DNA of 32,339 nt from Gammaproteobacteria bacterium (lineage in GTDB: Bacteria > Pseudomonadota > Gammaproteobacteria > UWMA-0217), in assembly GCA_027031685.1 (NCBI GenBank), contig JALVPS010000332.1, positions 1 to 32,339 of the forward strand. The letters run 5' to 3'. Of the stretch, positions 1-27,129 are shown in pieces; within the stretch, counting starts at the first letter, position 1, and each line of letters opens with the position of its first letter. The position numbers and the translations under genes are program-made. The notes under the pieces are model-generated. The model was not told the origin of the DNA. It did no database searches and saw only the letters and a list, made by a program, of their open reading frames with translations.

Positions 1-475
1 CCCGCCTGACGGTCCATTGCGGCAAGCGCTGGCAGCAGCGCCATTACCAAAACGACCGTTACCGAAGGCGCTTGCTCTGTCTCAAGGACACCTTCCAACG
101 GGAATTGGAACAGGCCGCACAACGGCACGGCGACAGCAAGACCGGCCGCAGCTGCCGCAAGTTGCTGGGCGACCTTCCCCGGTTCTGGACCTTTCTCAAT
201 CACCCCGGCGTGCCGATGACCAACAACCTGGCCGAGCGGGCGCTGCGCCCCTATGTCATCTGGCGCAAGACGAGCTTTTTCAGTCAATCCCACCGCGGCG
301 ACTGCTTCCGGCCCATGATCCTGTCGGTGGTTGAAACCTGCAAGCGGCTCAGGATCGGCGTCTACCAGACCCTGCGGACCATCTGTGCCCAGGGCATGCA
401 ACAGGGAGAGGTCACCTTCCGGCTGCCAATCCCCGAAAATCAGCCCTTGACAGCGGGAAGGCCGTGAACGGTTAC
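1..475 (+). mobile_element. IS66-family insertion sequence, right-hand portion (the rest lies off the window to the left)
   Basis: It contains the 3' part of an IS66-type transposase gene. The sequence ends ...GGTTAC at 470-475, which is 5'-GTAA on the complementary strand, the terminus I recall as typical of IS66-family inverted repeats. Homology to the interrupted IS256 transposase begins exactly at 476. Confidence 0.6.
3..467 (+). CDS. IS66-family transposase, C-terminal part (5' end truncated by the window edge)
   Basis: The frame is open from the window edge to TGA 465-467. The motif ...FWTFLNHPGVPMTNNLAERALRPYVIWRKTSFFSQS... (TNNxAERxxR) is typical of the C-terminal region of IS66 transposases. 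Confidence 0.75.
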   Translation, partial: RLTVHCGKRWQQRHYQNDRYRRRLLCLKDTFQRELEQAAQRHGDSKTGRSCRKLLGDLPRFWTFLNHPGVPMTNNLAERALRPYVIWRKTSFFSQSHRGDCFRPMILSVVETCKRLRIGVYQTLRTICAQGMQQGEVTFRLPIPENQPLTAGRP

Positions 476-983
476 CCCAGCGGTCCCGGCCCACATCCCG
501 GCGGCACCACTCGGCATACTCCGCCTCCCATGCTCGCTTCAGGCGGCCGATCACCGAGGCCGACAGCCCCTTCGCCTCTTCACCCACCAGCACCTCCAGC
601 GCCGCCTGCATCTGCCCCGTGGCCACCCCCTTCAGGTACAGCCACGGCAGGGCCGCCTCCACGCGCCGCGCCTTGCGCACATACGGCGGCACCAGCGCCG
701 AGCGAAACACCACCGCCTCTCCCGTCCGGCTGCGCACCTTCGGCACCTTCACCGCCACCGGACCCACCCCCGTCAGGATCTCCCGCTCCGGCAGGTACCC
801 GTTGCGCACTACCGCCTTCCGGCCCCCTTCGTCCACTTGCCCCTCGTACCGCCCCAGCAGCTCGGCCAGCTCCGCCTCGATGGCCTGCTCGATCAGCCGC
901 CGCGCACCGCGTCGCAACAGCTCCGTCAGCGGGTCCTCAACCATCCCTGGCTTGCGAAATTCAACTACGCTATCTTTGCCCAT
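476..983 (-). pseudogene. IS256-family (mutator-type) transposase, N-terminal ~169 codons only, cut off by the IS66 insertion
   Basis: It is absent from the ORF track because the frame has no stop before the left window edge. My translation from ATG 983 downward is MGKDSVVEFRKPGMVEDPLTELLRRGARRLIEQAIEAELAELLGRYEGQVDEGGRKAVVRNGYLPEREILTGVGPVAVKVPKVRSRTGEAVVFRSALVPPYVRKARRVEAALPWLYLKGVATGQMQAALEVLVGEEAKGLSASVIGRLKRAWEAEYAEWCRRDVGRDRW. Blocks conserved in IS256 transposases are present (DPLTELLR, VVRNGYLPER, LPWLYLKG, GLSAS.I.RLK). The resemblance ends at 476, before the DDE domain. An RBS GGAGG lies upstream of the ATG. Confidence 0.75.
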
Positions 984-1180
984 GGTGGCGTACCTCCTCT
1001 GCTGTTCAATCAGTTTCGACCATCCGATTCCAGCAGGGTACGCCGCCTCTCTCAATCCCTCCGTACACCACTTTCGAGCATAGCTCGCCTGGGTCGGAAC
1101 TGCGCCGAGCAGGCCGGCGGCGCACAAGGTGGCGCCCAACCCGATTTTTACGAGGGGTTCTTTACACGGCGGTGTCTCCT
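476..1180 (-). mobile_element. IS256-family element remnant (the outer end near 1170-1180 is approximate)
   Basis: It comprises the transposase fragment plus ~190 bp of upstream non-coding DNA. A plausible terminal sequence, read on the minus strand around 1140-1177, is GACACCGCCGTGTAAAGAACCCCTCGTAAAAATCGGG. The exact inverted-repeat boundary cannot be fixed without the other end. Confidence 0.35.
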
Positions 1181-1200
1181 CGGGGGTATTGGTATGGGAA

Positions 1201-1653
1201 TTACGGCTTGATCAGGATGTAGCCCTGGCCGACGAGATCAATGATGCGCACAACGCCGGCCGAGACGCGCACGGCGACGGGATTGAGCTTGGGCGGGTGA
1301 CCTAGTTTTTTGCTCATGTTGCGGATGGTGTTGCCGCAGGCGGAAAAACGCACGCCGCCGTTGTCGATCAGGTTCTTGATGCGACCGGCATTGGCGTTGT
1401 CGGCGAACAGCAGGCGCAGGCCGGGGCCGAAGGCCACGATTTCAATATCGACCTTGTCCGGACCGTAGTGTTTGAGCAGGTTGTTGGCCACATTGAGGAC
1501 CAAGGTCTGCTTGAAGGGGTCGCGGTCCGATATCTGCAGGACCACGCGTTTTTCGGCAAAGGGCTTGGGGTGCTCGCCGGCTGTGGCGGGCAAGGTGCTG
1601 GCCAGCAGGGTGCAGACAATGAGCAGGCTCAGCCAGTTTTCCAGGCGTCGCAT
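1201..1653 (-). CDS. Secreted DsrE/DsrF-like (COG1416-type) family protein
   Basis: I start at the internal ATG 1653 of track ORF 1201..1824, which has an RBS GGAGGAGA upstream. The N-terminus MRRLENWLSLLIVCTLLASTLPATAGE is a signal peptide. The body (VVLQISD...VDIEIVAFGPGL...RFSACGNT...VVRIIDLVGQGYILIKP) resembles DsrE-like fold proteins with the conserved Cys. Confidence 0.7.
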   Translation of the reverse strand: MRRLENWLSLLIVCTLLASTLPATAGEHPKPFAEKRVVLQISDRDPFKQTLVLNVANNLLKHYGPDKVDIEIVAFGPGLRLLFADNANAGRIKNLIDNGGVRFSACGNTIRNMSKKLGHPPKLNPVAVRVSAGVVRIIDLVGQGYILIKP

Positions 1654-1854
1654 CGTCTTCTCCTCCTGATGGTGGAGCGTTGGTGGGGGGCAGCAGTGGC
1701 CGCCTTTGGGAAAGAAGACGCGCCCGCCGGAAAATTTATTCCTTTGTCGCTGTCTTGCATCCAGAACGTCGGCTGTTGCGTATTTCATCCAGGCAGGTCG
1801 CCGCGGGGCGCCTGTTCCAGGCAATCACGGCATATACCAGAGGAGAGGATCACG

Positions 1855-2130
1855 ATGAGCCCGATTCACAAGACCAGTGGGGTGGCCGCGGCCACCCTGG
1901 CCGCCGCCCTGTTGATCAGCGGCTGCGAGACCATGGCCGGCAGCGGCGGCGCCGGTAGCGACGCGGCCCAGGCCAAGGTGCACTGTTACGGCGTCAACGC
2001 CTGCAAGGGGCAGACCGCCTGTGCCACGGCCACCAACGCTTGCAAGGGCCAGAACGCCTGCAAGGGCAAGGGCTGGCTGCCCATGACCAGGGACGAGTGC
2101 GTCGCCAAGGGCGGCACGGTAGAGAGCTGA
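1855..2130 (+). CDS. bufA: Bufferin-type RiPP precursor (DUF2282-like / 6-Cys BufA-like), exported, with a lipobox
   Basis: I start at the internal ATG 1855 of track ORF 1468..2130, with an RBS AGGAGAGG at 1841-1848. The product is 91 aa: [24 protein letters not shown] (signal plus lipobox), then a Gly/Ser/Ala linker, then [45 protein letters not shown]. It lies immediately upstream of the DUF692 and DUF2063 genes. Confidence 0.8.
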
Positions 2131-2137
2131 GCCGTCG

Positions 2138-2170
2138 GGTGGTCCGGGCGGCGTGGCTGCCCGGACCACC
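2138..2170 (+). promoter_or_regulatory. Perfect 12-bp stem-loop between the precursor and the modification genes (attenuator or RNA-stabilising hairpin)
   Basis: GGTGGTCCGGGC (2138-2149), a 9-nt loop, then GCCCGGACCACC (2159-2170), followed by GTTTCCC. It starts 8 nt after the bufA stop codon. Confidence 0.55.
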
Positions 2171-2204
2171 GTTTCCCGCGGCATCCGCGGCAGGAGGGCA
2201 CGCC

Positions 2205-3050
2205 ATGACGCCTCCCCACCAGGCGCGGCCGATGCTGGGCTACGGGCTGGGCCTGCGCAAGGAGCACTACACGGACATCCTGGCCGGCGACCCGCCGGTG
2301 GACTGGTTCGAGCTGCTCACCGAGAACTATCTGGTGCCCGGCGGTAAGCCGCTCCATTTCCTGGATCGCATCAGCGAGCGCTACCCTGTGGTATTGCACG
2401 GGGTGTCGCTGTCCATCGGCGGCAGCGACCCGCTCGATTTCGACTATCTGTGTCAGGTGAAGGCCCTGGCTGCGCGATGCGGCGCGCGCTGGATCTCCGA
2501 TCATCTGTGCTGGACCGGCCTGGACGGCATCAACGCCCACGACCTGCTGCCGCTGCCCTACAGCGAGGCGGCTGTGCGCCACGTGGTGACGCGGGTGCGG
2601 CAGGTGCAGGACTTTCTGGGCCATCGCATCCTGCTGGAGAACGTCTCCACCTACCTGGAATTCGACGTGGGCGAGCTCACCGAGTGGGAATTCGTCCGCG
2701 CCGTGGCCGAGGAGGCCGACTGCCTGCTGCTGCTGGACGTGAACAATATCCACGTCAGCGCCGTCAACCACGGCTTCGACCCGCTGGCCTACCTGGACGG
2801 CATCCCCGCCGAGCGGGTGTGGCAGGTCCACCTGGCCGGCCATAGCGACTACGGCCACTACCTCATCGACACCCACGACGCGGCCATCGTGCCCGCCGTG
2901 TGGGCCCTGTACCGGGCCGCGCTGCGCCGCGTCGGGCCGGTGTCGGCCATGATCGAGCGGGACGACAACATCCCGCGGCTGGACGAGCTGCTGGCCGAGC
3001 TGGCAAGGCTGCGGGCCATCGGCGAGGCGGAGCGCGCCCGTGCCGCGTGA
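2205..3050 (+). CDS. bufB: DUF692-family multinuclear non-heme iron oxidase (MNIO; MbnB/BufB-like)
   Basis: I start at ATG 2205, with an RBS GGAGGG at 2193-2198. Blocks I associate with DUF692 TIM-barrel proteins are present: [71 protein letters not shown]. Confidence 0.9.
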
Positions 3051-3825
3051 GCCGGACCTGCGCGACCTGCAGGCCGCCTTCATGGCCTGGCTGCGCCACG
3101 GCGACCCGGCCGTGACCCCCTGGGTGCGGGAGACGGCCAGCGTGGACCGCGCCACCCGCCTGGCCATCTACGCCAACGCCTACCGCGCCCGGCTGGCCGA
3201 GGCCCTGGCCGACAACTACCCGGCCCTGCACACCCTGCTGGGCGACGAGCGCTTCGACGCCCTGTGCCGCCAGTACCTCGATGCCGCCCCCTCGCGCACC
3301 CGCTCCATCCGCTGGTTCGGCGACGGCCTGGCCGACTTCCTGCGGCAGGCGCCGGACTACCGCTTCCAGCCCGTGCTGGCCGAGATGGCCCGCTTCGAAT
3401 GGGCCCTGCGCGCCGCCTTCGACGCCGCCGACGACCCGCCCCTCGCCGCCGGGGACCTGCGCCGCCTGCCGCCGCCGCGGTGGCCGGAACTGGTGCTGCG
3501 CCCGGTGGCCGCCCTGGCGCGGCTTGACTTCGCCCACAACGTGCCCGCCCTGTGGCAGGCCATCGACCAGGGCGCCGACCCCATCCCCGTCGAGCGCAGC
3601 CCGTCCCCCGTGCCCTGGGTGGTGTGGCGCCACGACGGGCGCATCCTGTTCCGCTCGCTGGCGGCCGACGAGGCCGGGGCGCTGGATGCGCTGTGCGCGG
3701 GGCAGACTTTTACCGAGCTGTGCGCTGGCCTGGGCGAGGGCCGCGACGCGGCGGCCGCCGCCCAACGCGCTGCTGCGCTGCTGCTGGGCTGGGTGGGGGA
3801 GGGCATGCTGGCCGCCCTGGACTGA
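3040..3825 (+). CDS. bufC: DUF2063 domain protein (MbnC/BufC-like partner of the MNIO)
   Basis: The GTG start at 3040 overlaps the bufB stop by 11 nt, which suggests translational coupling. The N-terminal pattern LQAAFMAWL...[17 protein letters not shown]...YPAL..LLGDE.F..L.R.Y resembles the DUF2063 family. It occupies the canonical position after DUF692. Confidence 0.85.
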
Positions 3826-3834
3826 ACGCCCAGC

Positions 3835-3868
3835 GCGGCCGCCCGGCGGCCGGGGCCGGTCCGGCCGC
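3835..3868 (+). terminator. GC-rich compound hairpin after bufC (possible weak intrinsic terminator)
   Basis: GCGGCCG (3835-3841) pairs with CGGCCGC (3862-3868), and an inner CCGGC (3843-3847) pairs with GCCGG (3855-3859). It is followed by TCTGCTATC, which is only a poor U-tract. Confidence 0.3.
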
Positions 3869-3885
3869 TCTGCTATCATCGGCCC

Positions 3886-4440
3886 ATGCCCGACAAGCCC
3901 CGCATCAACCAGCGCCAGGCCATCGCCCGCACCCGCCTGTTCCAGGTGGAGGCGTTGGATATCACCTTCGCCAACGGCACCCGCGTCAACTACGAGCGGC
4001 TGGTCACCTCCGGCCACGGCGCGGTCATCGTCGTCCCCCTGCGCGACCCGCGCACTGCCCTGCTCATCCGCGAATACGCCGCCGGCACCGAGCGCTACGA
4101 GCTGGCCCTGCCCAAGGGGCGCATGGAGGCCGGCGAGACGCCCGAGCAGGCCGCCAACCGGGAGATGATGGAGGAGATCGGCCACGCCGCGCGCCGCCTC
4201 ACCTGCCTCACCGACGTGTCACTGGCGCCCGGCTACATGAGCCACCGCACGCACATGGTGCTGGCCGAGGACCTCTACCCGCAGCGGGCCACCGGCGACG
4301 AGCCGGAGCCCATCGAGGTAGTGCCCTGGCCGCTGGACCGCCTGCTGGAGCTGGCCCTGCGCGACGACTGCACGGAGGCGCGCAGCATCGCCGCCCTCTA
4401 TATGGCACGCGATTATCTGCAACAAAGGAACCCCGCATGA
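3886..4440 (+). CDS. nudE: ADP compounds hydrolase NudE (Nudix family)
   Basis: A Nudix box GRMEAGETPEQAANREMMEEIG is present. The end-to-end resemblance to E. coli NudE as I remember it is good (RTRLFQVE..., AVIVVP, LIREYAAGTE.YEL, GDEPEP). Confidence 0.88.
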   Translation: MPDKPRINQRQAIARTRLFQVEALDITFANGTRVNYERLVTSGHGAVIVVPLRDPRTALLIREYAAGTERYELALPKGRMEAGETPEQAANREMMEEIGHAARRLTCLTDVSLAPGYMSHRTHMVLAEDLYPQRATGDEPEPIEVVPWPLDRLLELALRDDCTEARSIAALYMARDYLQQRNPA

Positions 4441-5270
4441 CTACTGCCGACCCCGCCCGCCTGGCGGCCCTGTTGGCCGACTGCCGCGTCATCGCGCAGG
4501 CCGCCGGCGAGGAGATCATGGCCGTCTACCGTACCGCCTTCACCGTGGACCACAAGGCCGATCGCAGCCCGCTCACCGAGGCCGACCTGCGCGCCCACCG
4601 CCTCATCGCCGCCCGCCTGGCCGAGCTCACGCCGCACTGGCCGCTGCTGTCCGAGGAAGGCGCCGACCTGCCCTACGCCGAGCGTCGCCAGTGGCGCACC
4701 TACTGGCTGGTGGACCCCCTGGACGGCACGCGCGAGTTCGTCAAGCGCAACGACGAATTCACCGTCAACATCGCCCTCGTTCACGACCACGAGCCGGTGC
4801 TGGGCGTGGTGCACGCCCCGGCGCTGGGCCGCATGTGCTATGCGGCGCGCGGCGTGGGCGCCTTCCAGCGCCGCGACGGGGGCGAAGAGCAGCCCCTGGC
4901 CTGCCGCGAGCTGCCCGCCGACGAGCTGGTGGTGGCCGGCAGCCGCTCCCACGGCAAGGCCGCCCTGGCCACGTTCATGGCCCGCCTCGGCCCCCACCAG
5001 GTGATCTCCATGGGCAGCTCCCTCAAGTTCTGCCTGGTGGCCGAGGGGCGCGCCGACCTCTACCCGCGCCTCGGCCCCACCAGCGAGTGGGACACCGCCG
5101 CCGCCCAGTGCGTGGTGGAGACCGCCGGCGGCCACGTCACCGACCTGGACATGCGCCCGCTGCGCTACAACACCCGCGACTCGCTGCTCAACCCCTGCTT
5201 CTTCGCCTTCGGGCGCACCTGGCGCGACTGGTCCGCCCTGCTGCCCGAGCCGCGCCCCGACGCCTGCTGA
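4437..5270 (+). CDS. cysQ: 3'(2'),5'-bisphosphate nucleotidase CysQ
   Basis: ATG 4437 overlaps the nudE stop (ATGA). The inositol-monophosphatase-family motifs SEE, WLVDPLDGTREF and EWDTAAA are present. Confidence 0.9.
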   Translation: MTTADPARLAALLADCRVIAQAAGEEIMAVYRTAFTVDHKADRSPLTEADLRAHRLIAARLAELTPHWPLLSEEGADLPYAERRQWRTYWLVDPLDGTREFVKRNDEFTVNIALVHDHEPVLGVVHAPALGRMCYAARGVGAFQRRDGGEEQPLACRELPADELVVAGSRSHGKAALATFMARLGPHQVISMGSSLKFCLVAEGRADLYPRLGPTSEWDTAAAQCVVETAGGHVTDLDMRPLRYNTRDSLLNPCFFAFGRTWRDWSALLPEPRPDAC

Positions 5271-5300
5271 CCCCATGACCACAACGAGGAGGTCCGACCC

Positions 5301-5648
5301 ATGCGCCGACTGCTCTCTGTACTCGTCTCCCTCAGCCTGCTCTTCGGCACTGGCCTGCAGCCAGTGCGGGCGGCCCTGGTCTCCACCGAGGCCGCCCTGG
5401 CCGGCGCGCCCTTGCCGCCGCGGGTGGACGCCACCCTGCAACGGGCCGACGTGCAGGCCCGCCTGCAGCAGCTGGGCGTGAGCCCCGAGCTGGCCCGCCA
5501 GCGCATCGCCCGTCTCAGTGACGCCGAGCTGGCCCGCCTCGACCAGCTGCCCGCCGGGGCCGGCGTCATCGAGGTGGTCGGGCTGGTGTTCATTGTGCTG
5601 ATCATCCTGGAGCTGGTGGGCGTCACCGACATATTCACCCGCATCTGA
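5301..5648 (+). CDS. PA2779-like small exported protein with a C-terminal hydrophobic anchor
   Basis: An RBS GAGGAGG lies at 5286-5292. There is a signal peptide (MRRLLSVLVSLSLLFGTGLQPVRA) and a C-terminal transmembrane-like tail (VIEVVGLVFIVLIILELVGV). It is paired with the following C39-like peptidase, as in the PA2779/PA2778 families. Confidence 0.65.
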   Translation: MRRLLSVLVSLSLLFGTGLQPVRAALVSTEAALAGAPLPPRVDATLQRADVQARLQQLGVSPELARQRIARLSDAELARLDQLPAGAGVIEVVGLVFIVLIILELVGVTDIFTRI

Positions 5649-5652
5649 GCCA

Positions 5653-6582
5653 GTGGTGATGCGGCCGGCCCTGCTGCTGGCCCTGCTGCTGGCCCTGCTC
5701 CTGGCCGGCTGTGCCGGCGTCCCACCCGCGCCGGAGGGGCCAGACGTGGAGTTGGCCGCGGTGCCCTTCTTCCCCCAGCAGCGCTACCAGTGCGGCCCGG
5801 CCGCCCTGGCCACCGTGCTGCGGCACGCGGGCCGGCCGGTCACTCCCGGCGCGCTGGTGTCCGAGGTGTGGCTGCCGGAACGGCGGGGCAGCCTGCAGCT
5901 GGAGCTGGTGGCGGCCGTGCGCAGCCGCGGCCTGGTGCCCTATCGCCCGCCGCCGCGGCTGGACGCCCTGCTGGCCGAGCTGCGCGCCGGCCGGCCCGTG
6001 CTGGTGTTGCTCAACCTCGGCCTGCGCGCCGCCCCGGTCTGGCACTACGCGGTGGTGGTCGGCTATCAGACGGACCCGCCGCGCCTGATCCTGCGTTCCG
6101 GCACCACCCGGCGGCAGGCGGTGCCCCTGCGCCGCTTCCGCCGCCAATGGGGGCTGGCCGGCCGCTGGGCGCTGGTGGTGCTGCCGCCCGACCGGCTGCC
6201 GGCCGGCGACGATCCGGCCGGCTACCTGCGCGCCGTGGCCGGGCTGGAGGCCACCGGCCAGGAGACGGCCGCCGCCCGCGCCTACCGCAGCGCCCTGCGC
6301 CGCTGGCCGGACCAACCGCCCGCCTGGCTGGGGCTGGGCAATCTGGCCGCCACCGCGGGCCGGTGGGCGGAGGCCGCCGATCACTACCGGCGCGCCCTCG
6401 CCCTGCGCCCCGGCTGGCCGCCGGCCGTCAACAACCTGGCCGAGGCCGAGGCACGCCTCGGCCGGCGCGGCGCCGCCCTGCGCCTTCTGGACGCCGCCCT
6501 GGCCCGGCCCGATCTCGCCCCGCGCTGGCGGGCCGTGCTGCGCCGCACGCGGGCCGAAGTGGCCGAGCCGGCCGCGCCCTGA
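5653..6582 (+). CDS. PA2778-like lipoprotein cysteine peptidase (C39-like domain plus TPR repeats)
   Basis: There is a lipobox LLAGC. The catalytic-type motifs QQRYQCGPAALATVL and HYAVVVGY are present, and the C-terminal half has TPR-like repeats (AYRSALRRWPD..., HYRRALALRPGW...). The start could be GTG 5653 or ATG 5659. Confidence 0.72.
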   Translation: MVMRPALLLALLLALLLAGCAGVPPAPEGPDVELAAVPFFPQQRYQCGPAALATVLRHAGRPVTPGALVSEVWLPERRGSLQLELVAAVRSRGLVPYRPPPRLDALLAELRAGRPVLVLLNLGLRAAPVWHYAVVVGYQTDPPRLILRSGTTRRQAVPLRRFRRQWGLAGRWALVVLPPDRLPAGDDPAGYLRAVAGLEATGQETAAARAYRSALRRWPDQPPAWLGLGNLAATAGRWAEAADHYRRALALRPGWPPAVNNLAEAEARLGRRGAALRLLDAALARPDLAPRWRAVLRRTRAEVAEPAAP

Positions 6583-6620
6583 CGGGCTCGGGGCCGGGCC
6601 CGCGTCCGGCGCGTGGCCGC

Positions 6621-7097: not shown

Positions 7098-7571
7098 ATG
7101 AAGCGTGCTTTGCTGATCGGTGGGCTGTTGTGGCTGGGCGCCGGCCTGGCACAGGCGGGAGTAACGGTGGTGGATGCCTGGGTGCGGGTCATGCCGCCCG
7201 GAGCGCGCGCCAGCGCCGCCTTCATGACCCTGAAGAACAGCGACGACAGCCCCCACGCCCTGGTGAGGGCGCGCAGCGACGTGGCGCGCCTGGTGGAGCT
7301 GCACACCCACATCCACGACAACGGCGTGATGCGCATGCGGCCGGTCGAGCGCATCGACATCCCGGCCGGGGGCAGCGTGGCGCTCGAGCCCGGCGGCTAC
7401 CACATCATGCTCATCGACCTGCAGCGGCCCATCAAGGCCGGCGACCACGTGGCCCTGGAGCTGGAACTGGACGACGGCACACGGCTCGCCGTGCAGGCCG
7501 AGGCGCGCAGTCCGCGGCGGGGCGCCATGCCGGCCATGCACCACGGACACGAGCACCACGAGGCCCACTGA
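7098..7571 (+). CDS. Periplasmic copper chaperone PCu(A)C (DUF461)
   Basis: I start at ATG 7098, with an RBS GAGGA at 7086-7090. There is a signal peptide MKRALLIGGLLWLGAGLAQA, and the motifs VVDAWVR..., AAFMTLKN and GGYHIMLIDL are present. The C-terminal tail AMPAMHHGHEHHEAH is rich in His and Met. Confidence 0.85.
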   Translation: MKRALLIGGLLWLGAGLAQAGVTVVDAWVRVMPPGARASAAFMTLKNSDDSPHALVRARSDVARLVELHTHIHDNGVMRMRPVERIDIPAGGSVALEPGGYHIMLIDLQRPIKAGDHVALELELDDGTRLAVQAEARSPRRGAMPAMHHGHEHHEAH

Positions 7572-24511: not shown

Positions 24512-25102
24512 TCAGGCCAGCTCCCGCTCCGAGAACTCCTCCGTGCGATAGCGCGACACGCGCAGCGTGTCGGACCAGTAGTCGGGCGGCAGGCCGGCCT
24601 TGCGCTTGAGCTGGCGCACGAACTCGCGCGCATTGGGCAGTGACTCCCACACGCTGGGCAGGAAGGTGGCGCGATAGGGGCCGTCCTCCAGGATCAGGCC
24701 ATCGCGCCCCGGCTCCAGCTGCCGCAGCAGGTCGTCCTCGTCCCGCACGGCCATGGGCTCCGGCGCGCCCAGCACCGACACACTGATCTCGATGTCCGGG
24801 AACTCCTCCGGGGTGAGCGGCGGAAAGCGCGGGTCGGAGAAGGCGGCCGCATAGGCGTGCTCGGCCACGTCCTGCACCAGGGGCTGGTAGGCCGACAGGG
24901 CGCCGATGCAGCCGCGCAGCTGGCCGTGCTTCTTGAGGGTGACGAAGCTGGCTCCCTCGCGCTGCAGTTCGGGGTCGAACTTTGAGACGTCCACGCGCAA
25001 CGGCCGGCCGTGCTCGAAGCCGTGGGCGATGGAATCGCGCGCCACGCGCAGCAGCACGGCCCGCTGCGCCGGCGTCAGTTCAGCGGATGGCCCAGGCGCC
25101 AT
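24512..25102 (-). CDS. amrA: AmmeMemoRadiSam system protein A (AMMECR1 domain)
   Basis: The blocks GASFVTLKKHGQLRGCIG and DPRFPPL are present. The gene overlaps the 3' end of the upstream gene by 23 nt. Confidence 0.88.
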   Translation of the reverse strand: MAPGPSAELTPAQRAVLLRVARDSIAHGFEHGRPLRVDVSKFDPELQREGASFVTLKKHGQLRGCIGALSAYQPLVQDVAEHAYAAAFSDPRFPPLTPEEFPDIEISVSVLGAPEPMAVRDEDDLLRQLEPGRDGLILEDGPYRATFLPSVWESLPNAREFVRQLKRKAGLPPDYWSDTLRVSRYRTEEFSERELA

Positions 25103-25895
25103 AGCCCACCACCTGATCCCTGGGTCCGGCCGTGTCGCCGGAGTTGCGCAGGTCCAGCCGCTTCACGCGCAGGCCCTTGCGGCGCGCCACTTCCAGCAGG
25201 CCGCGCACGGGCAGGAAGCCGCAGGCGTTCTCGGAGGCCAGCCGCTCCGGCTGCAGCGACTCGATGGCCTCGGCGGTGGCGGCATCCAGGCGCCGGGCCG
25301 TCTGGTAGTCGTGGTAGTGGCTCAGGTCGGAGCTGACCACGATGAGCGTCTCCGGCCCGTCCCACACGGCCTCCAGCACCTCGGCCACCTCCTCCGGCGT
25401 GGCGGCGCTCACCACCAGCGGCACCAGCTCGAACTCGTCGCCCAAGGTGAGTTGCAGGAAGGGCAGGTGCACCTCCAGGCTGTGCTCGCCGGCGTGGGCC
25501 AGGTCGTAGGCCACCACTTGCGGCAGCCGCTCGAGGGCGGCGATGGTGTCGGTGTCCAGCGGCACCCGGCCCAGGGGGGTGGCGAAGTAGTCCGCGGTGG
25601 GCACAGCGATGCCGCGGAAGCCCACGCGGTGGTCGGGGCCGAGCAGCACGACGCGGCGGATGGGATGGGTGCGGTTGCGCAGGGTGGCGTAGCCGGCGGC
25701 GGCCACGGGTCCGGAATAGATGTAGCCGGCGTGGGGCACGATGAGCGCCTTGGGGGCCGGCTCGTCGGTGCGGGCCGCCTCCAGGAAGCGCAGCACCTGC
25801 TCGCGCAGGGTGTCCGGGTCGTCCGGATAGAAGGTGCCGGCCACGGCCGGCGAGCGGACGCGGGGCGGGGTGGATGACCAGGTGTCTTGTCGCAT
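25080..25895 (-). CDS. amrB: AmmeMemoRadiSam system protein B (Memo-like)
   Basis: The motifs AVAGTFYP, ALIVPHAGYIYSG, EHSLEV.LPFLQ, SSDLSHY and CG. are present. Confidence 0.88.
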   Translation of the reverse strand: MRQDTWSSTPPRVRSPAVAGTFYPDDPDTLREQVLRFLEAARTDEPAPKALIVPHAGYIYSGPVAAAGYATLRNRTHPIRRVVLLGPDHRVGFRGIAVPTADYFATPLGRVPLDTDTIAALERLPQVVAYDLAHAGEHSLEVHLPFLQLTLGDEFELVPLVVSAATPEEVAEVLEAVWDGPETLIVVSSDLSHYHDYQTARRLDAATAEAIESLQPERLASENACGFLPVRGLLEVARRKGLRVKRLDLRNSGDTAGPRDQVVGYGAWAIR

Positions 25896-25936
25896 GGGGA
25901 AATCTGCTCCGGGAATGCCAGGGGTTTCTATCCGAT

Positions 25937-25953
25937 ATGGGGTGCAACCCCAT
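25937..25953. promoter_or_regulatory. Palindrome ATGGGGT-GCA-ACCCCAT in the amrB/amrS divergent region (a third copy of ATATGGGGT lies at 25991-25999)
   Basis: I read it directly from the sequence. The same 9-mer ATATGGGGT occurs at 25935-25943 and at 25991-25999. Confidence 0.3.
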
Positions 25954-26028
25954 CCGCTTCAAGGAATTGAGTTTTGTGCGCCGTGTCACCATATGGGGTA
26001 GGGAGTCCCTGCCCAACGGTGACCGCCC

Positions 26029-27129
26029 ATGACGCAACCCAAGGTTCCCGAATCGCTCCATCCCACCAAGTACTGGCACCGCCTGGAAGACGGCCGCGTG
26101 CAGTGCGACCTGTGCCCGCGCGAGTGCAAGCTGCACGAGGGCCAGCGCGGCCTGTGCTTCGTGCGCGCCTGCCACAACGGCGAGATTGTGCTCACCTCCT
26201 ACGGCCGCTCCAGCGGTTTCGTGGTGGATCCCATCGAGAAAAAGCCCCTCAACCACTTCCTGCCCGGCACGGCGGTGCTGTCCTTCGGCACGGCGGGCTG
26301 CAACCTGGCCTGCAAGTTCTGCCAGAACTGGGACATCAGCAAGTCGCGCGAGATGGACACGCTCATGGACGAGGCGCCGCCGGAGAAGCTGGCCAAGGTG
26401 GCCAAGGCCCTGGGCTGCCGCAGTGTGGCCTACACCTACAACGATCCGGTCATCTTCATGGAATACGCCATCGACACCGCCAAGGCCTGCCACGAGGTGG
26501 GCGTGAAGTCGGTGGCGGTGACGGCCGGCTACATCTCGCCCGAGCCGCGCAAGGAGTTCTTCGCCCACATGGACGCGGCCAACATCGACCTCAAGGCCTT
26601 CACCGAGGATTTCTACTGGAAGATCACCGGCGGACACCTGCAGCCGGTGCTGGACACCATCCACTACGTCTATCACGAGACGGACTGCTGGATGGAGCTG
26701 ACCACCCTGCTCATCCCCGGCGAAAACGACTCCGACGAGGAGATCGACGCCATGACGCGCTGGATCGTCAATGAACTGGGGCCGGACGTGCCGCTGCACT
26801 TCACCGCCTTCCACCCGGCCTGGAAGATGATGGACCACCCGCCCACCCCGCCGGAGACGCTGCGCCGGGCGCGCGAGATCGCCCTGCGCAACGGTGTGCG
26901 CTACTGCTACACGGGCAACGTCCACGACGAGGAGGGGCAGAGCACCTACTGCCACGCCTGCGGCACGCGGCTCATCGGGCGCGACTGGTACGTGATCACG
27001 GAGTGGAACCTCACCGAGGACGGCAAGTGCCCGCAGTGCGGCACGCCCTGCGCCGGCGTGTTCGAGGCCCGGCCCGGCGACTGGGGCGCCCGGCGCCTGC
27101 CGGTGCGCCTGGCCGACTTCGCCGCCTGA
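26029..27129 (+). CDS. amrS: AmmeMemoRadiSam system radical SAM enzyme
   Basis: The radical SAM motif CNLACKFCQN is present. An N-terminal Cys cluster CDLCPRECKL..G.RG.C and a C-terminal Cys cluster YCHACG...CPQCG are also present, as in the family. Confidence 0.9.
   Translation: MTQPKVPESLHPTKYWHRLEDGRVQCDLCPRECKLHEGQRGLCFVRACHNGEIVLTSYGRSSGFVVDPIEKKPLNHFLPGTAVLSFGTAGCNLACKFCQNWDISKSREMDTLMDEAPPEKLAKVAKALGCRSVAYTYNDPVIFMEYAIDTAKACHEVGVKSVAVTAGYISPEPRKEFFAHMDAANIDLKAFTEDFYWKITGGHLQPVLDTIHYVYHETDCWMELTTLLIPGENDSDEEIDAMTRWIVNELGPDVPLHFTAFHPAWKMMDHPPTPPETLRRAREIALRNGVRYCYTGNVHDEEGQSTYCHACGTRLIGRDWYVITEWNLTEDGKCPQCGTPCAGVFEARPGDWGARRLPVRLADFAA

Follow-up and report, generated by a model that had tools for sequence, protein, structure and literature searches.

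A predicted lipoprotein-type Buf2 bufferin operon in an uncultured gammaproteobacterium

Does a cysteine-rich precursor gene with two linked enzyme genes, lying beside insertion sequence debris, represent an uncharacterised peptide system or a further member of a described family? The locus lies in a 32,339-nucleotide stretch of DNA, referred to throughout as the window, from a high-GC uncultured gammaproteobacterium that is represented by metagenome assemblies only. A preliminary description had proposed a bufferin-type MNIO RiPP cluster there, made up of three linked same-strand ORFs with an 11-nt overlap, and had suggested that it was an uncharacterised variant. All three ORFs lie where that description had placed them:

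1855-2130, plus strand: bufA (bufA2), 91 codons, exported Cys-rich precursor
2205-3050, plus strand: bufB (bufB2), 281 codons, cytoplasmic MNIO (DUF692) maturase
3040-3825, plus strand: bufC (bufC2), 261 codons with a GTG start, DUF2063/HvfC_N partner

The bufB gene starts 74 nt 3' of bufA and overlaps bufC by exactly 11 nt, an overlap by which bufC is translationally coupled to bufB.

An intact three-gene Buf2 operon

The profile matches agree with the proposed cluster type. The bufA product matched the NCBIfam BufA2 model NF050166 at 89.1 bits (cut-off 60), its residues 10-89 aligning with positions 2-78 of the 79 in the profile, and the bufB product matched the MNIO_BufB model NF050167 over its full length at 364.8 bits (cut-off 310). 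The DUF692 assignment of 2205-3050 was borne out by a full-length PF05114 match of 362.6 bits (cut-off 25), and BufC carries the PF09836 domain of the expected partner at residues 10-101 (89.2 bits; cut-off 27.2). DUF2282 (PF10048), also raised in the preliminary description, was not matched by the precursor at E <= 0.01 in a Pfam search; the BufA2 model was matched instead. As that description had noted, bufABC has no DoxX-like fourth gene beside it: the next gene after bufC is nudE, identified by a profile match. A Buf1 or DUF2282-type cluster (bufABCD) is ruled out by the lack of both PF10048 and DoxX, and identity with methanobactin MbnABC is ruled out by the MbnB equivalog model TIGR04159, where the score was only 54.8 bits (cut-off 325). 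A gene for a PCuAC copper chaperone is present 3.3 kb away.

In an alignment of 84 sequences, 72 columns reach 97% conservation or more, and BufB retains all of them, including H65, H100, E145, D178, H209, D222, H224 and E251; by analogy with MbnB structures, these His, Asp and Glu residues are putative iron ligands. The protein is matched in the PDB by 3bww (E 7e-52) and fell below the cut-offs of the sister MNIO models, namely HvfB (274 against 360), ApyH, ChrH and MbnB. In the case of BufC, the HvfC equivalog model NF050145 gave 57.4 bits, under its cut-off of 142, so that by profile score BufC is a relative of HvfC but not an HvfC equivalog. Its weak match to the HvfC model extends over residues 11-258 and is only suggestive of an RRE-like peptide-binding domain at the C-terminus; a PDB-type sequence search found no solved relative. 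Neither BufB nor BufC has a signal peptide.

The gene order is widely shared. Among 84 related buf2 loci collected around bufB (six DsrE-containing loci, L085-L090, were counted separately), bufA lies 5' of bufB in 76, bearing out the expectation that the small ORF would be kept beside the MNIO gene, and a BufC homologue lies 3' of bufB in 81. This recurrence of the A-B-C order indicates that the operon is more than a chance arrangement. The 11-nt overlap is found also in L001, L002 and L085, and no DoxX gene recurs 3' of bufC among the related loci. In blastn, L085 is 83.5% identical to the window over positions 1087-5270; dN/dS between the two is 0.14 for bufA, 0.27 for bufB and 0.63 for the fast-evolving bufC, values that show the buf genes to be under purifying selection.

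These data bear on a reading in which the cluster is decaying or silent and yields no product, a suspicion prompted by the IS-ridden stretch on which it lies, where the porin gene remnant and the nested pieces of IS elements come within 700 bp of the operon control region. However, the three ORFs are intact and keep every conserved residue, each dN/dS is below 1, identity with L085 in the BufA core is 100% in spite of the nucleotide divergence, and the Shine-Dalgarno sequences and conserved promoter boxes are intact. We consider a silent cluster hardly credible.

Judged from its sequence, then, the locus is an intact three-gene Buf2 operon, bufA2-bufB2-bufC2, of the lipoprotein-signal subtype, in a family described between 2024 and 2026. 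The genes nudE and cysQ, the DsrE-like gene described below and the IS fragments are neighbours that stand outside the buf system.

The BufA2 precursor and its lipobox

The mature part of BufA2 contains six Cys residues, at positions 44, 50, 56, 63, 69 and 82, and three NACKG motifs; the six-Cys/Cys-Lys-Gly pattern is the same across 120 homologues. A seventh Cys, Cys24 (codon 1924-1926), belongs to a lipobox, so that the six core Cys and lipobox Cys of the preliminary description are indeed present. The n-region of the signal peptide includes Lys6, the h-region runs from V10 to I21 and the lipobox is I21-S22-G23-C24 (ISGC). The rule that we applied, of the PROSITE PS51257 kind, looks for [LVI][ASTVI][GAS]C whose Cys falls within residues 15-35 and which is preceded by an n-region with charge and an h-region with none; BufA2 satisfies it with Cys at position 24. 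By this rule the signal peptide, of the lipoprotein type, comprises residues 1-23; a Gly/Ser/Ala tether follows at residues 25-41. Because the signal is of the lipoprotein (SPII) type and not of the signal peptidase I type, we expect the product to be tethered to a membrane. The residue at +2 from the lipobox Cys is Glu, so placement in the inner or the outer membrane is not predictable.

A soluble periplasmic bufferin, cut by signal peptidase I after Ala28 and with Cys24 an incidental part of the signal peptide, would be the main alternative at this step. A possible signal peptidase I site, T-M-A|G, is retained at residues 26-29, on the C-terminal side of the lipobox. A sequence search found 2546 homologues of BufA2; in close ones at 62-66% identity (P0007, P0009 and P0010) the lipobox Cys is replaced by Gly and an AxA-type site follows shortly after, an exchange which indicates that the two kinds of signal interconvert easily. 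Lipidation has been demonstrated for the MNIO peptides DybA and NedA, but for no bufferin yet (PMC13056109). Against this, 18 of 75 related loci have the lipobox, Leucothrix and Cocleimonas MAGs among them, its position does not shift in the 38 of 120 homologues that share it, and L-I-S/T-G-C is kept in L085 and L089 amid flanking n-region and tether sequences that vary. The lipoprotein rule is satisfied, and at a canonical lipobox Lgt and LspA normally take precedence. On balance we regard a soluble product as improbable and a lipoprotein as the better prediction.

Neither the signal nor the rest of the architecture makes the locus an uncharacterised variant. The three-gene layout without DoxX is that of the founding Caulobacter buf2 (PMC11626156); six Cys define the BUF_6/12Cys family, and lipoprotein signal peptides are reported on about 16% of Buf2 precursors (PMC12452194), a group taken up again in a survey of RiPP lipoproteins (PMC13056109). 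That suggestion fails because the architecture, the Cys count and the lipoprotein signal have all been described already, and because the DsrE-like gene that had been cited in its favour is absent from the 84 related loci.

The DsrE-like neighbour and the control region

Upstream of bufA, and in the spacer between bufA and bufB, the window holds the following features:

72-467, plus strand: C-terminal fragment of an IS66-family transposase gene, abutting and truncating the IS256-family fragment
471-983, minus strand: IS256/Mutator-family transposase fragment, N-terminal 171 codons only
1087-1170, minus strand: 5' remnant of a porin gene, read by eye; homology with L085 ends at 1087
1201-1653, minus strand: DsrE-like gene, 150 aa, signal peptide, periplasmic product, outside the buf system
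1717-1742, minus strand: candidate ECF-type promoter of the DsrE-like gene, GGAATAA-N15-CGTC(T)
1756-1783, plus strand: candidate ECF (sigmaF-like) promoter of bufABC, TGCATCC-N16-CGTAT
2138-2170, plus strand: hairpin in the bufA-bufB spacer, with arms of 15 bp around a 3-nt loop and lacking a T-run

The divergent DsrE-like gene and the IS debris of the preliminary description are thus real, but a link between them and the buf system did not hold up. The DsrE-like protein matched 1l1s (MTH1491; E 2e-8) and 2pd2 (E 2e-3) in the PDB; PF02635 did not match it even at E <= 10, but a few of its 3083 homologues carry a precomputed PF02635, and some sources name them as DsrE/DsrF family. In L085-L090 the DsrE-like gene is followed by a porin gene. 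L086 and L087 have this pair in the company of no buf genes; there an ECF sigma gene, together with a second gene of unknown family, stands divergent to the pair, at the position which the buf operon occupies in the window, L085, L089 and L090. L088 has only a partial gene on the DsrE-like side. The DsrE-like gene therefore appears, from its gene neighbourhoods, to head a conserved DsrE-like/porin module that is separate from buf, and it adjoins buf only in close relatives of the host. In the window the porin partner has been cut off by the nested fragments of the IS256 family (PF00872, E 7.7e-17, profile positions 23-156 of 379) and the IS66 family (PF03050 positions 210-281 of 284; NF033517 positions 283-385 of 387), and tblastn with the L085 porin found no further porin sequence in the window.

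It might be argued that the system is larger, with the DsrE-like protein and the porin cooperating with the bufferin in sulfur or persulfide handling or as a co-regulated envelope stress unit. The divergent adjacency and a shared control region of about 200 bp are kept in the window, L085, L089 and L090, both promoters are ECF-type in appearance, and the PCuAC gene is close by. Yet a DsrE-like homologue was found within 5 kb of bufB in none of the 84 related buf2 loci, at L001, which of the other BufA2 loci is the closest, the upstream gene is unrelated, and the module exists elsewhere with no buf genes, in L086 and L087. Here IS elements have destroyed the porin gene of the module but left bufABC intact; the DsrE-like gene (GC 0.61) has a GC3 of 0.82, against 0.91-0.95 for bufABC; the two promoter motifs are unlike each other; and BufB and BufC suffice for Buf biosynthesis (PMC11626156). 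We judge this enlarged system highly improbable. One could also picture a single co-regulated envelope response, directed at metal and reduced-sulfur stress in combination, to which the tethered thiooxazole peptide and the periplasmic DsrE-like protein both belong. In our estimation this is a very long shot; if true, the bufferin would gain a partner from outside the BufBCD set.

The promoter motifs can be followed across the related loci. GGAATAA-N15-CGTC(T) is unique in the window, with none expected by chance, and the form GGAATAA-N14-16-YRTCT precedes the DsrE-like gene in all six of L085-L090 and occurs in none of the other 84 loci. TGCATCC-N16-CGTAT, whose single match within the window ends 72 nt 5' of the bufA ATG, keeps both boxes in L085, L088, L089 and L090, although its spacer has diverged in L085. 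GCATCC-N15-17-CGTAT also precedes bufA in L030, L032, L049, L061, L066 and L080, and 12 of the 77 regions upstream contain a degenerate form, where shuffled sequences give 0.6. The motif resembles the Caulobacter sigmaF site GTAACC-N16-CGAA (PMC3511200), and we regard it as a candidate sigmaF-like ECF promoter; there is no sigF/nrsF pair in the 32-kb window. GCATCC-N16-CGTAT is found with Buf2 operons of several orders, none with a sigma factor gene adjacent, and may aid studies of bufferin regulation.

The 86-nt spacer between bufA and bufB folds at -52 kcal/mol (z -3.4), a stability equalled by none of 200 shuffles, and in 31 of 76 related loci this spacer contains a perfect stem of 8 bp or more, where shuffling gives 0.95. 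The hairpin is a candidate mRNA stabiliser or partial attenuator that would raise the ratio of precursor to enzyme, and its recurrence after the precursor gene could also help investigations of bufferin regulation.

Predicted function and relation to known systems

Taken as a whole, we think it likely that this is a lipoprotein-type Buf2 operon whose peptide is modified at Cys, lipidated and active in copper buffering. The chemistry, the choice of modified Cys, the lipidation, the copper binding and the regulation proposed here are drawn from work on Caulobacter Buf1 and Buf2, DybA and NedA. The operon would be transcribed from the ECF (sigmaF-like) promoter, and the hairpin after bufA would probably tip the mRNA towards precursor over enzyme. 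In the cytoplasm BufB, as a multinuclear iron oxidase, would act with BufC to oxidise Cys50, 56, 63 and 69 of BufA2 to 5-thiooxazoles, each with the loss of 4 Da. The modified precursor would be exported by Sec, whereupon Lgt would place diacylglycerol on Cys24, LspA would take off residues 1-23 and Lnt would N-acylate the new N-terminus; Cys44 and Cys82 would form a disulfide. The result would be a 68-residue lipopeptide, hung from a membrane on its flexible Gly/Ser/Ala tether, with thiooxazoles that sequester excess periplasmic copper. Among bufferins, thiooxazole formation and copper binding are known only for the Caulobacter members. In Caulobacter Buf2, CysI and CysVI escape modification and are probably joined by a disulfide, and the four central Cys each lose 4 Da; the peptide absorbs near 305 nm and its operon is induced by copper via SigF (PMC11626156). 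Triacylated, MNIO-modified DybA and NedA have been isolated (PMC13056109).

A genuine Buf2 peptide might instead have a ligand or role other than copper: Hg, Au, Ag, Cd, or the scavenging of redox species or sulfide. MerC-bufferin fusions, links to gold-induced genes and roles with other metals have been discussed (PMC12452194; PMC11626156), and no copper efflux or cop genes adjoin bufABC in the window. However, Cu induces the two Caulobacter bufferins, whereas Fe, Zn and Mn do not, and both peptides confer protection against Cu (PMC11626156); related thiooxazole peptides are likewise tied to copper (PMC13097082). A non-copper role is therefore unlikely in our view, and copper remains the favoured ligand. 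The host may also be confronted by metals other than copper.

The locus is one more intact example of the lipoprotein-type Buf2, a subgroup that has been predicted but of which no member has been isolated, and has little import beyond annotation. Bufferin lipidation, the target membrane and the effect of tethering on copper buffering could all be studied with it.

Among known systems, Caulobacter vibrioides buf2ABC (CCNA_03001-02999; PMC11626156) shares with the window the precursor-MNIO-DUF2063 order, the lack of DoxX, six core Cys, an N-terminal Sec-type signal, passing scores with the NCBIfam BufA2 and BufB models and a likely ECF-type promoter, and both belong to the Cys-Lys (NACKG-type) group (PMC13097082). 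The differences are that the signal is lipoprotein-type (SPII, ISGC) in the window but signal peptidase I-type in Caulobacter, that the putative boxes are TGCATCC/CGTAT rather than GTAACC/CGAA, and that the window has no sigF-nrsF pair in view and a gammaproteobacterial host. The predicted lipoprotein-type Buf2 bufferins (PMC12452194; PMC13056109) are of the same subtype, with a BufA2 core behind a lipobox, and differ in no substantive way. DybA (ChrH-type) and NedA (oxazolin/EGKCG-type) follow the route proposed here, with a cytoplasmic MNIO step, Sec export and Lgt, LspA and Lnt acting at the lipobox Cys (PMC13056109). NedA is, like Buf2, a copper-binding peptide with Cys-derived heterocycles made by an MNIO and a DUF2063-type partner. 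However, these two peptides carry CPACGMG or EGKCG repeats in place of the folded, disulfide-containing six-Cys domain of Buf2, and DybH requires no partner protein. Bufferin 1 (BufA1, buf1ABCD) and the gig operons share the conversion of Cys to 5-thiooxazole by MNIO/DUF2063 chemistry, Sec export and a role in copper stress; Buf1 differs in its four Cys, DUF2282 signature, DoxX gene and often adjacent sigF/nrsF. In MbnABC and in the oxazolin/fontiphorin systems HvfABC/FonABC, too, an MNIO and its partner modify Cys residues of a copper-binding ribosomal peptide, although the precursors and the leader logic are different and, in the case of methanobactin, so are the export route and the chemistry.

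The bufferin operon and its conservation

The system consists of three genes.

1855-2130, plus strand: bufA (precursor BufA2), 91 codons, with the Shine-Dalgarno sequence GGAGAGGA ahead of it
2205-3050, plus strand: bufB (DUF692 MNIO maturase), 281 codons, with AGGAGG ahead of it
3040-3825, plus strand: bufC (DUF2063 partner), 261 codons, with a GTG start and an 11-nt overlap with bufB

These are exactly the positions at which the preliminary description had placed three co-oriented reading frames in the window, whose G+C content is approximately 70%, and every particular of that observation was confirmed. It had recognised correctly a bufferin-type system, and the profile searches that it called for support this assignment: the 2205-3050 product matches DUF692/MNIO models, the small reading frame encodes BufA2 and the third encodes a DUF2063 protein. 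The BufA2 precursor passes the NCBI curated equivalog model NF050166 (89.1 bits against a cut-off of 60) and had no match to DUF2282 in the profile search. The 281-amino-acid BufB protein passes the BufB MNIO model NF050167 (364.8 against 310), scores 362.6 bits with PF05114 and stays under the cut-off of each sister model (HvfB, ApyH, MbnB and ChrH); among solved structures, the DUF692 protein 3bww is closest to it. The 261-amino-acid BufC protein has a DUF2063/HvfC_N domain (89.2 bits) and matches the HvfC model weakly (57 against a cut-off of 142). Searches of PDB sequences with BufA2 and BufC found no relatives, and no second copy of bufA or of an MNIO gene was found in the window. When BufB was aligned with 83 BufB proteins from related loci, it kept all 72 of the columns that are at least 97% conserved, including the His/Asp/Glu set H65, H100, E145, D178, H209, D222, H224 and E251, which we take to be the putative iron ligands by analogy with MbnB.

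At E <= 1e-3, 2546 homologues of the precursor were found. A BufB scan of GTDB species genomes was used to collect the best 80 loci (58-71% identity), which belong mostly to Gammaproteobacteria with some Beta- and Alphaproteobacteria, and four more from contig look-ups brought the set to 84. The small gene is indeed kept beside the MNIO gene: of the 84 loci, 76 have a BufA2 homologue immediately 5' of bufB and 81 have a BufC homologue immediately 3' of it. The gene 3' of bufC varies by locus (DsbB-like, cystathionine beta-synthase-like and many others) and no recurrent fourth gene was seen downstream of bufC across the related loci. For the region as a whole, the locus that we call L085 is the closest relative, with 83.5% nucleotide identity over 1087-5270 of the window. 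In comparison with L085, dN/dS is 0.14 for bufA, 0.27 for bufB and 0.63 for bufC, and the BufA2 core is 100% identical, with all of the differences lying in the n-region or the tether. We conclude from this that the operon is intact and subject to selection. We also observed that bufC evolves much faster than its partners, with 74% amino acid identity to its L085 counterpart (2404-3189) compared with 91% for bufA and 84% for bufB; dS is similar across the three genes.

The lipobox precursor and its predicted product

BufA2 begins with an n-region carrying positive charge and an h-region of 12 residues, which lead into the lipobox I-S-G-C24; a Gly/Ser/Ala tether comes next, and then a core with six Cys residues (44, 50, 56, 63, 69 and 82). 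A lipobox occurs at the same position in 38 of the 120 top homologues and in 18 of 75 non-redundant loci; a PROSITE-like lipoprotein rule is satisfied by 37 of the 120, and by BufA2 itself with the Cys at position 24. Among homologues that are 62-68% identical to BufA2, one (P0006) reads LSGC|ES where another (P0007) reads LSGGQALA|G, from which it appears that SPII and non-lipobox signal types interconvert readily. There is no clear trend for BufB to co-evolve with lipobox precursors, which are found at 8 of 24 loci with at least 65% BufB identity and at 10 of 51 below that value. Residue +2 of BufA2 is Glu, as it is in 8 of the 38 lipobox homologues, and so we make no confident call between the inner and the outer membrane. 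Duplicated 12-Cys cores, a form of the bufferin core that has already been published, were seen among P0015, P0019, P0020, P0025, P0064, P0089, P0073 and P0111, some of which also have a lipobox; P0073 and P0111 have 10 core Cys, with extra CK(G/T) repeats apparently inserted in the loop.

In Caulobacter, maturation requires both BufB and BufC, which together suffice for it, and recognition does not depend on the signal peptide (PMC11626156). The first and last Cys of the Caulobacter Buf2 peptide are unmodified and probably disulfide-bonded, while each of the four central Cys is lighter by 4 Da; the mature peptide has an absorbance near 305 nm and binds copper through its thiooxazoles (PMC11626156). 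5-Thiooxazoles have been assigned across the BufB enzyme clade, in which BufA2 belongs to the 'Cys-Lys' (NACKG) substrate group (PMC13097082). By analogy, BufB and BufC would modify Cys50, Cys56, Cys63 and Cys69 of the window's BufA2, with a predicted disulfide between Cys44 and Cys82. As signal peptides are absent from both BufB and BufC, BufA2 would be expected to be modified before it is exported. This is the order seen for the lipidated MNIO peptides DybA and NedA, of which triacylated species were obtained from E. coli membranes (PMC13056109). Taken with that precedent and the lipobox, the expected order points to a predicted product that would be a 68-residue lipopeptide, beginning at an acylated Cys24 and tethered through residues 25-41.

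The DsrE-like neighbour and the surrounding genes

The operon is bordered by the following features.

72-467: C-terminal fragment of an IS66-family transposase, cutting the IS256-family fragment
471-983, minus strand: N-terminal fragment of an IS256/Mutator-family transposase, left of the DsrE-like gene
1201-1653, minus strand: DsrE-like gene, 150 amino acids with a signal peptide, divergent from bufABC
3886-4440: nudE, downstream of bufC
approximately 4470-5270: cysQ-like phosphatase gene, after nudE
5301-6582: DUF6627 gene and C39-like peptidase/TPR gene, a pair missing in L085
between the C39-like/TPR gene and the PCuAC gene, minus strand: unknown ORF
7104-7571, plus strand: PCuAC copper chaperone gene (PF04314, 142.9 bits)

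The DsrE-like protein resembles DsrE-like folds (PDB 1l1s, E 2e-8), and sources name its homologues DsrE/DsrF. The preliminary description had counted this neighbour among the marks of an uncharacterised variant, a reading that the comparison of loci does not sustain. No DsrE-like homologue was found within approximately 5 kb of bufB at any of the 84 loci, the gene upstream of the next-closest BufA2 locus is unrelated to it, and at the loci reached through its own homologues (L085-L090) it belongs to a separate conserved module in which it is followed by a porin gene. On these grounds we rejected the DsrE-like protein as a component of the system. At L086 and L087 an ECF sigma gene and a second gene, not buf genes, lie opposite the module, which stands back-to-back with bufCBA only in the window's close relatives L085, L089 and L090. 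Its GC (0.61) and GC3 (0.82) are like those of the IS fragments, and GC3 in bufABC, nudE and cysQ is 0.91-0.97. The DsrE-like gene is a lineage-specific neighbour. A side observation concerns this periplasmic DsrE-like/porin(/DUF302) module: the second gene at L086 and L087 encodes a 238-249-amino-acid protein of no Pfam family, possibly an anti-sigma factor.

Homology of the window to L085 ends at 1087, which leaves approximately 27 codons of the porin gene; in place of the remainder stands the IS256-family fragment, which the IS66 fragment has cut in turn. The IS debris, which had also been offered as a sign of a variant, therefore damaged the DsrE-like/porin operon and not the bufferin operon. 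The porin remnant seems to have lost its start codon within this nested damage (72-1170).

The DUF6627/C39-like pair forms a 1.35-kb block (5271-6617) after cysQ that reflects either an insertion here or a deletion in the collinear L085. The PCuAC gene, for a periplasmic protein with a likewise copper-related role, lies 3.3 kb downstream of bufC with housekeeping genes between, and L085 has this gene too. Elsewhere the window has a housekeeping look, with DUF533/TerB, BolA, MdoG and a family-2 glycosyltransferase of glucan synthesis, c-type cytochromes, PPK2, RNase D, a sigma-54 activator, a HlyD-type protein and a trio of AMMECR1, Memo and radical-SAM genes. The trio at 24512-27129, with AMMECR1 and the Memo-like gene on the minus strand and the radical-SAM gene on the plus strand, matches the widespread AmmeMemoRadiSam trio.

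Putative control signals and relation to known bufferins

Alignment with L085, L088, L089 and L090 showed that two pairs of boxes are constant in the divergent region of approximately 200 nt, with spacers that diverge in L085.

1717-1742, minus strand: GGAATAA-N15-CGTC(T), ahead of the DsrE-like gene
1756-1783, plus strand: TGCATCC-N16-CGTAT, ahead of bufA

The first motif, a candidate ECF-type promoter, is present at all six DsrE-like loci (L085-L090), where it takes the form GGAATAA-N15-YRTCT, and at none of the other 84; at L086 a similar GGAATAA-N15-CATCC, read by eye, also faces the ECF sigma gene. The second recurs as GCATCC-N15-17-CGTAT upstream of bufA in Steroidobacteraceae, Dokdonella and Burkholderiales (L030, L032, L049, L061, L066 and L080), and a degenerate form was found in 12 of 77 upstream regions (shuffles gave 0.6, and the opposite strand 2). 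In shape, this candidate promoter is like the Caulobacter sigmaF site mapped by experiment, GTAACC-N16-CGAA, from which both buf operons are driven (PMC3511200). Because Buf2 clusters have been reported without adjacent sigma genes, an unlinked SigF-like ECF factor may widely control them; no ECF sigma gene was found among the window ORFs scanned. A possible sigma-54 element at TTGCA (1755-1759) was dismissed on inspection by eye, since the upstream TGGCAC-like box is wrongly spaced and not conserved in L085. A plus-strand GGAAAAT-N15-TGTCT mirroring the DsrE-like promoter was also rejected, because L085 does not conserve it.

The 74-nt bufA-bufB spacer holds a hairpin (2138-2170) with 15-bp arms. 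The 86 nt around it (2125-2210) fold at -52 kcal/mol (z -3.4), and 0 of 200 shuffles were as stable. In this spacer, 31 of 76 related loci have a perfect stem of 8 bp or more, compared with a mean of 0.95 for shuffled spacers. The hairpin has no T-run and was thus rejected as a canonical terminator. RiPP operons commonly have a stem-loop after the precursor gene that raises the precursor:enzyme ratio, and by analogy the bufA-bufB hairpin fits an arrangement that would act in this way. A scan of 1100-4600 found neither a sigma-70 promoter nor an intrinsic terminator, and the whole window gave no Rfam matches at gathering thresholds and no tRNA by ARAGORN. We found no mention of a hairpin after the precursor gene in the bufferin papers that we consulted.

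The remaining grounds for an uncharacterised variant were the missing DoxX gene and the combination of six core Cys with a lipobox Cys, and neither distinguishes the locus. The founding buf2 operon of Caulobacter vibrioides (CCNA_03001-02999) also has three genes and 'lacks a bufD1-like gene', and DoxX is dispensable for Buf1 anyway (PMC11626156); with the heterogeneity of the genes downstream of bufC, this rules out the missing DoxX as a novelty. Six Cys define the Buf2 (BUF_6/12Cys) family, and the lipobox is ruled out as a novelty by reports of the lipobox subtype (PMC12452194, PMC13056109), the first of which gives lipoprotein signals for approximately 16% of Buf2 precursors, while the second, a 2026 paper on RiPP lipoproteins, describes a subset of bufferins with SPII signals. 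What value remains in the locus is its use for testing bufferin lipidation, together with the observations on the hairpin and the promoter motif; in itself it adds an ordinary member to the published Buf2 family, of the already-predicted lipoprotein subtype.
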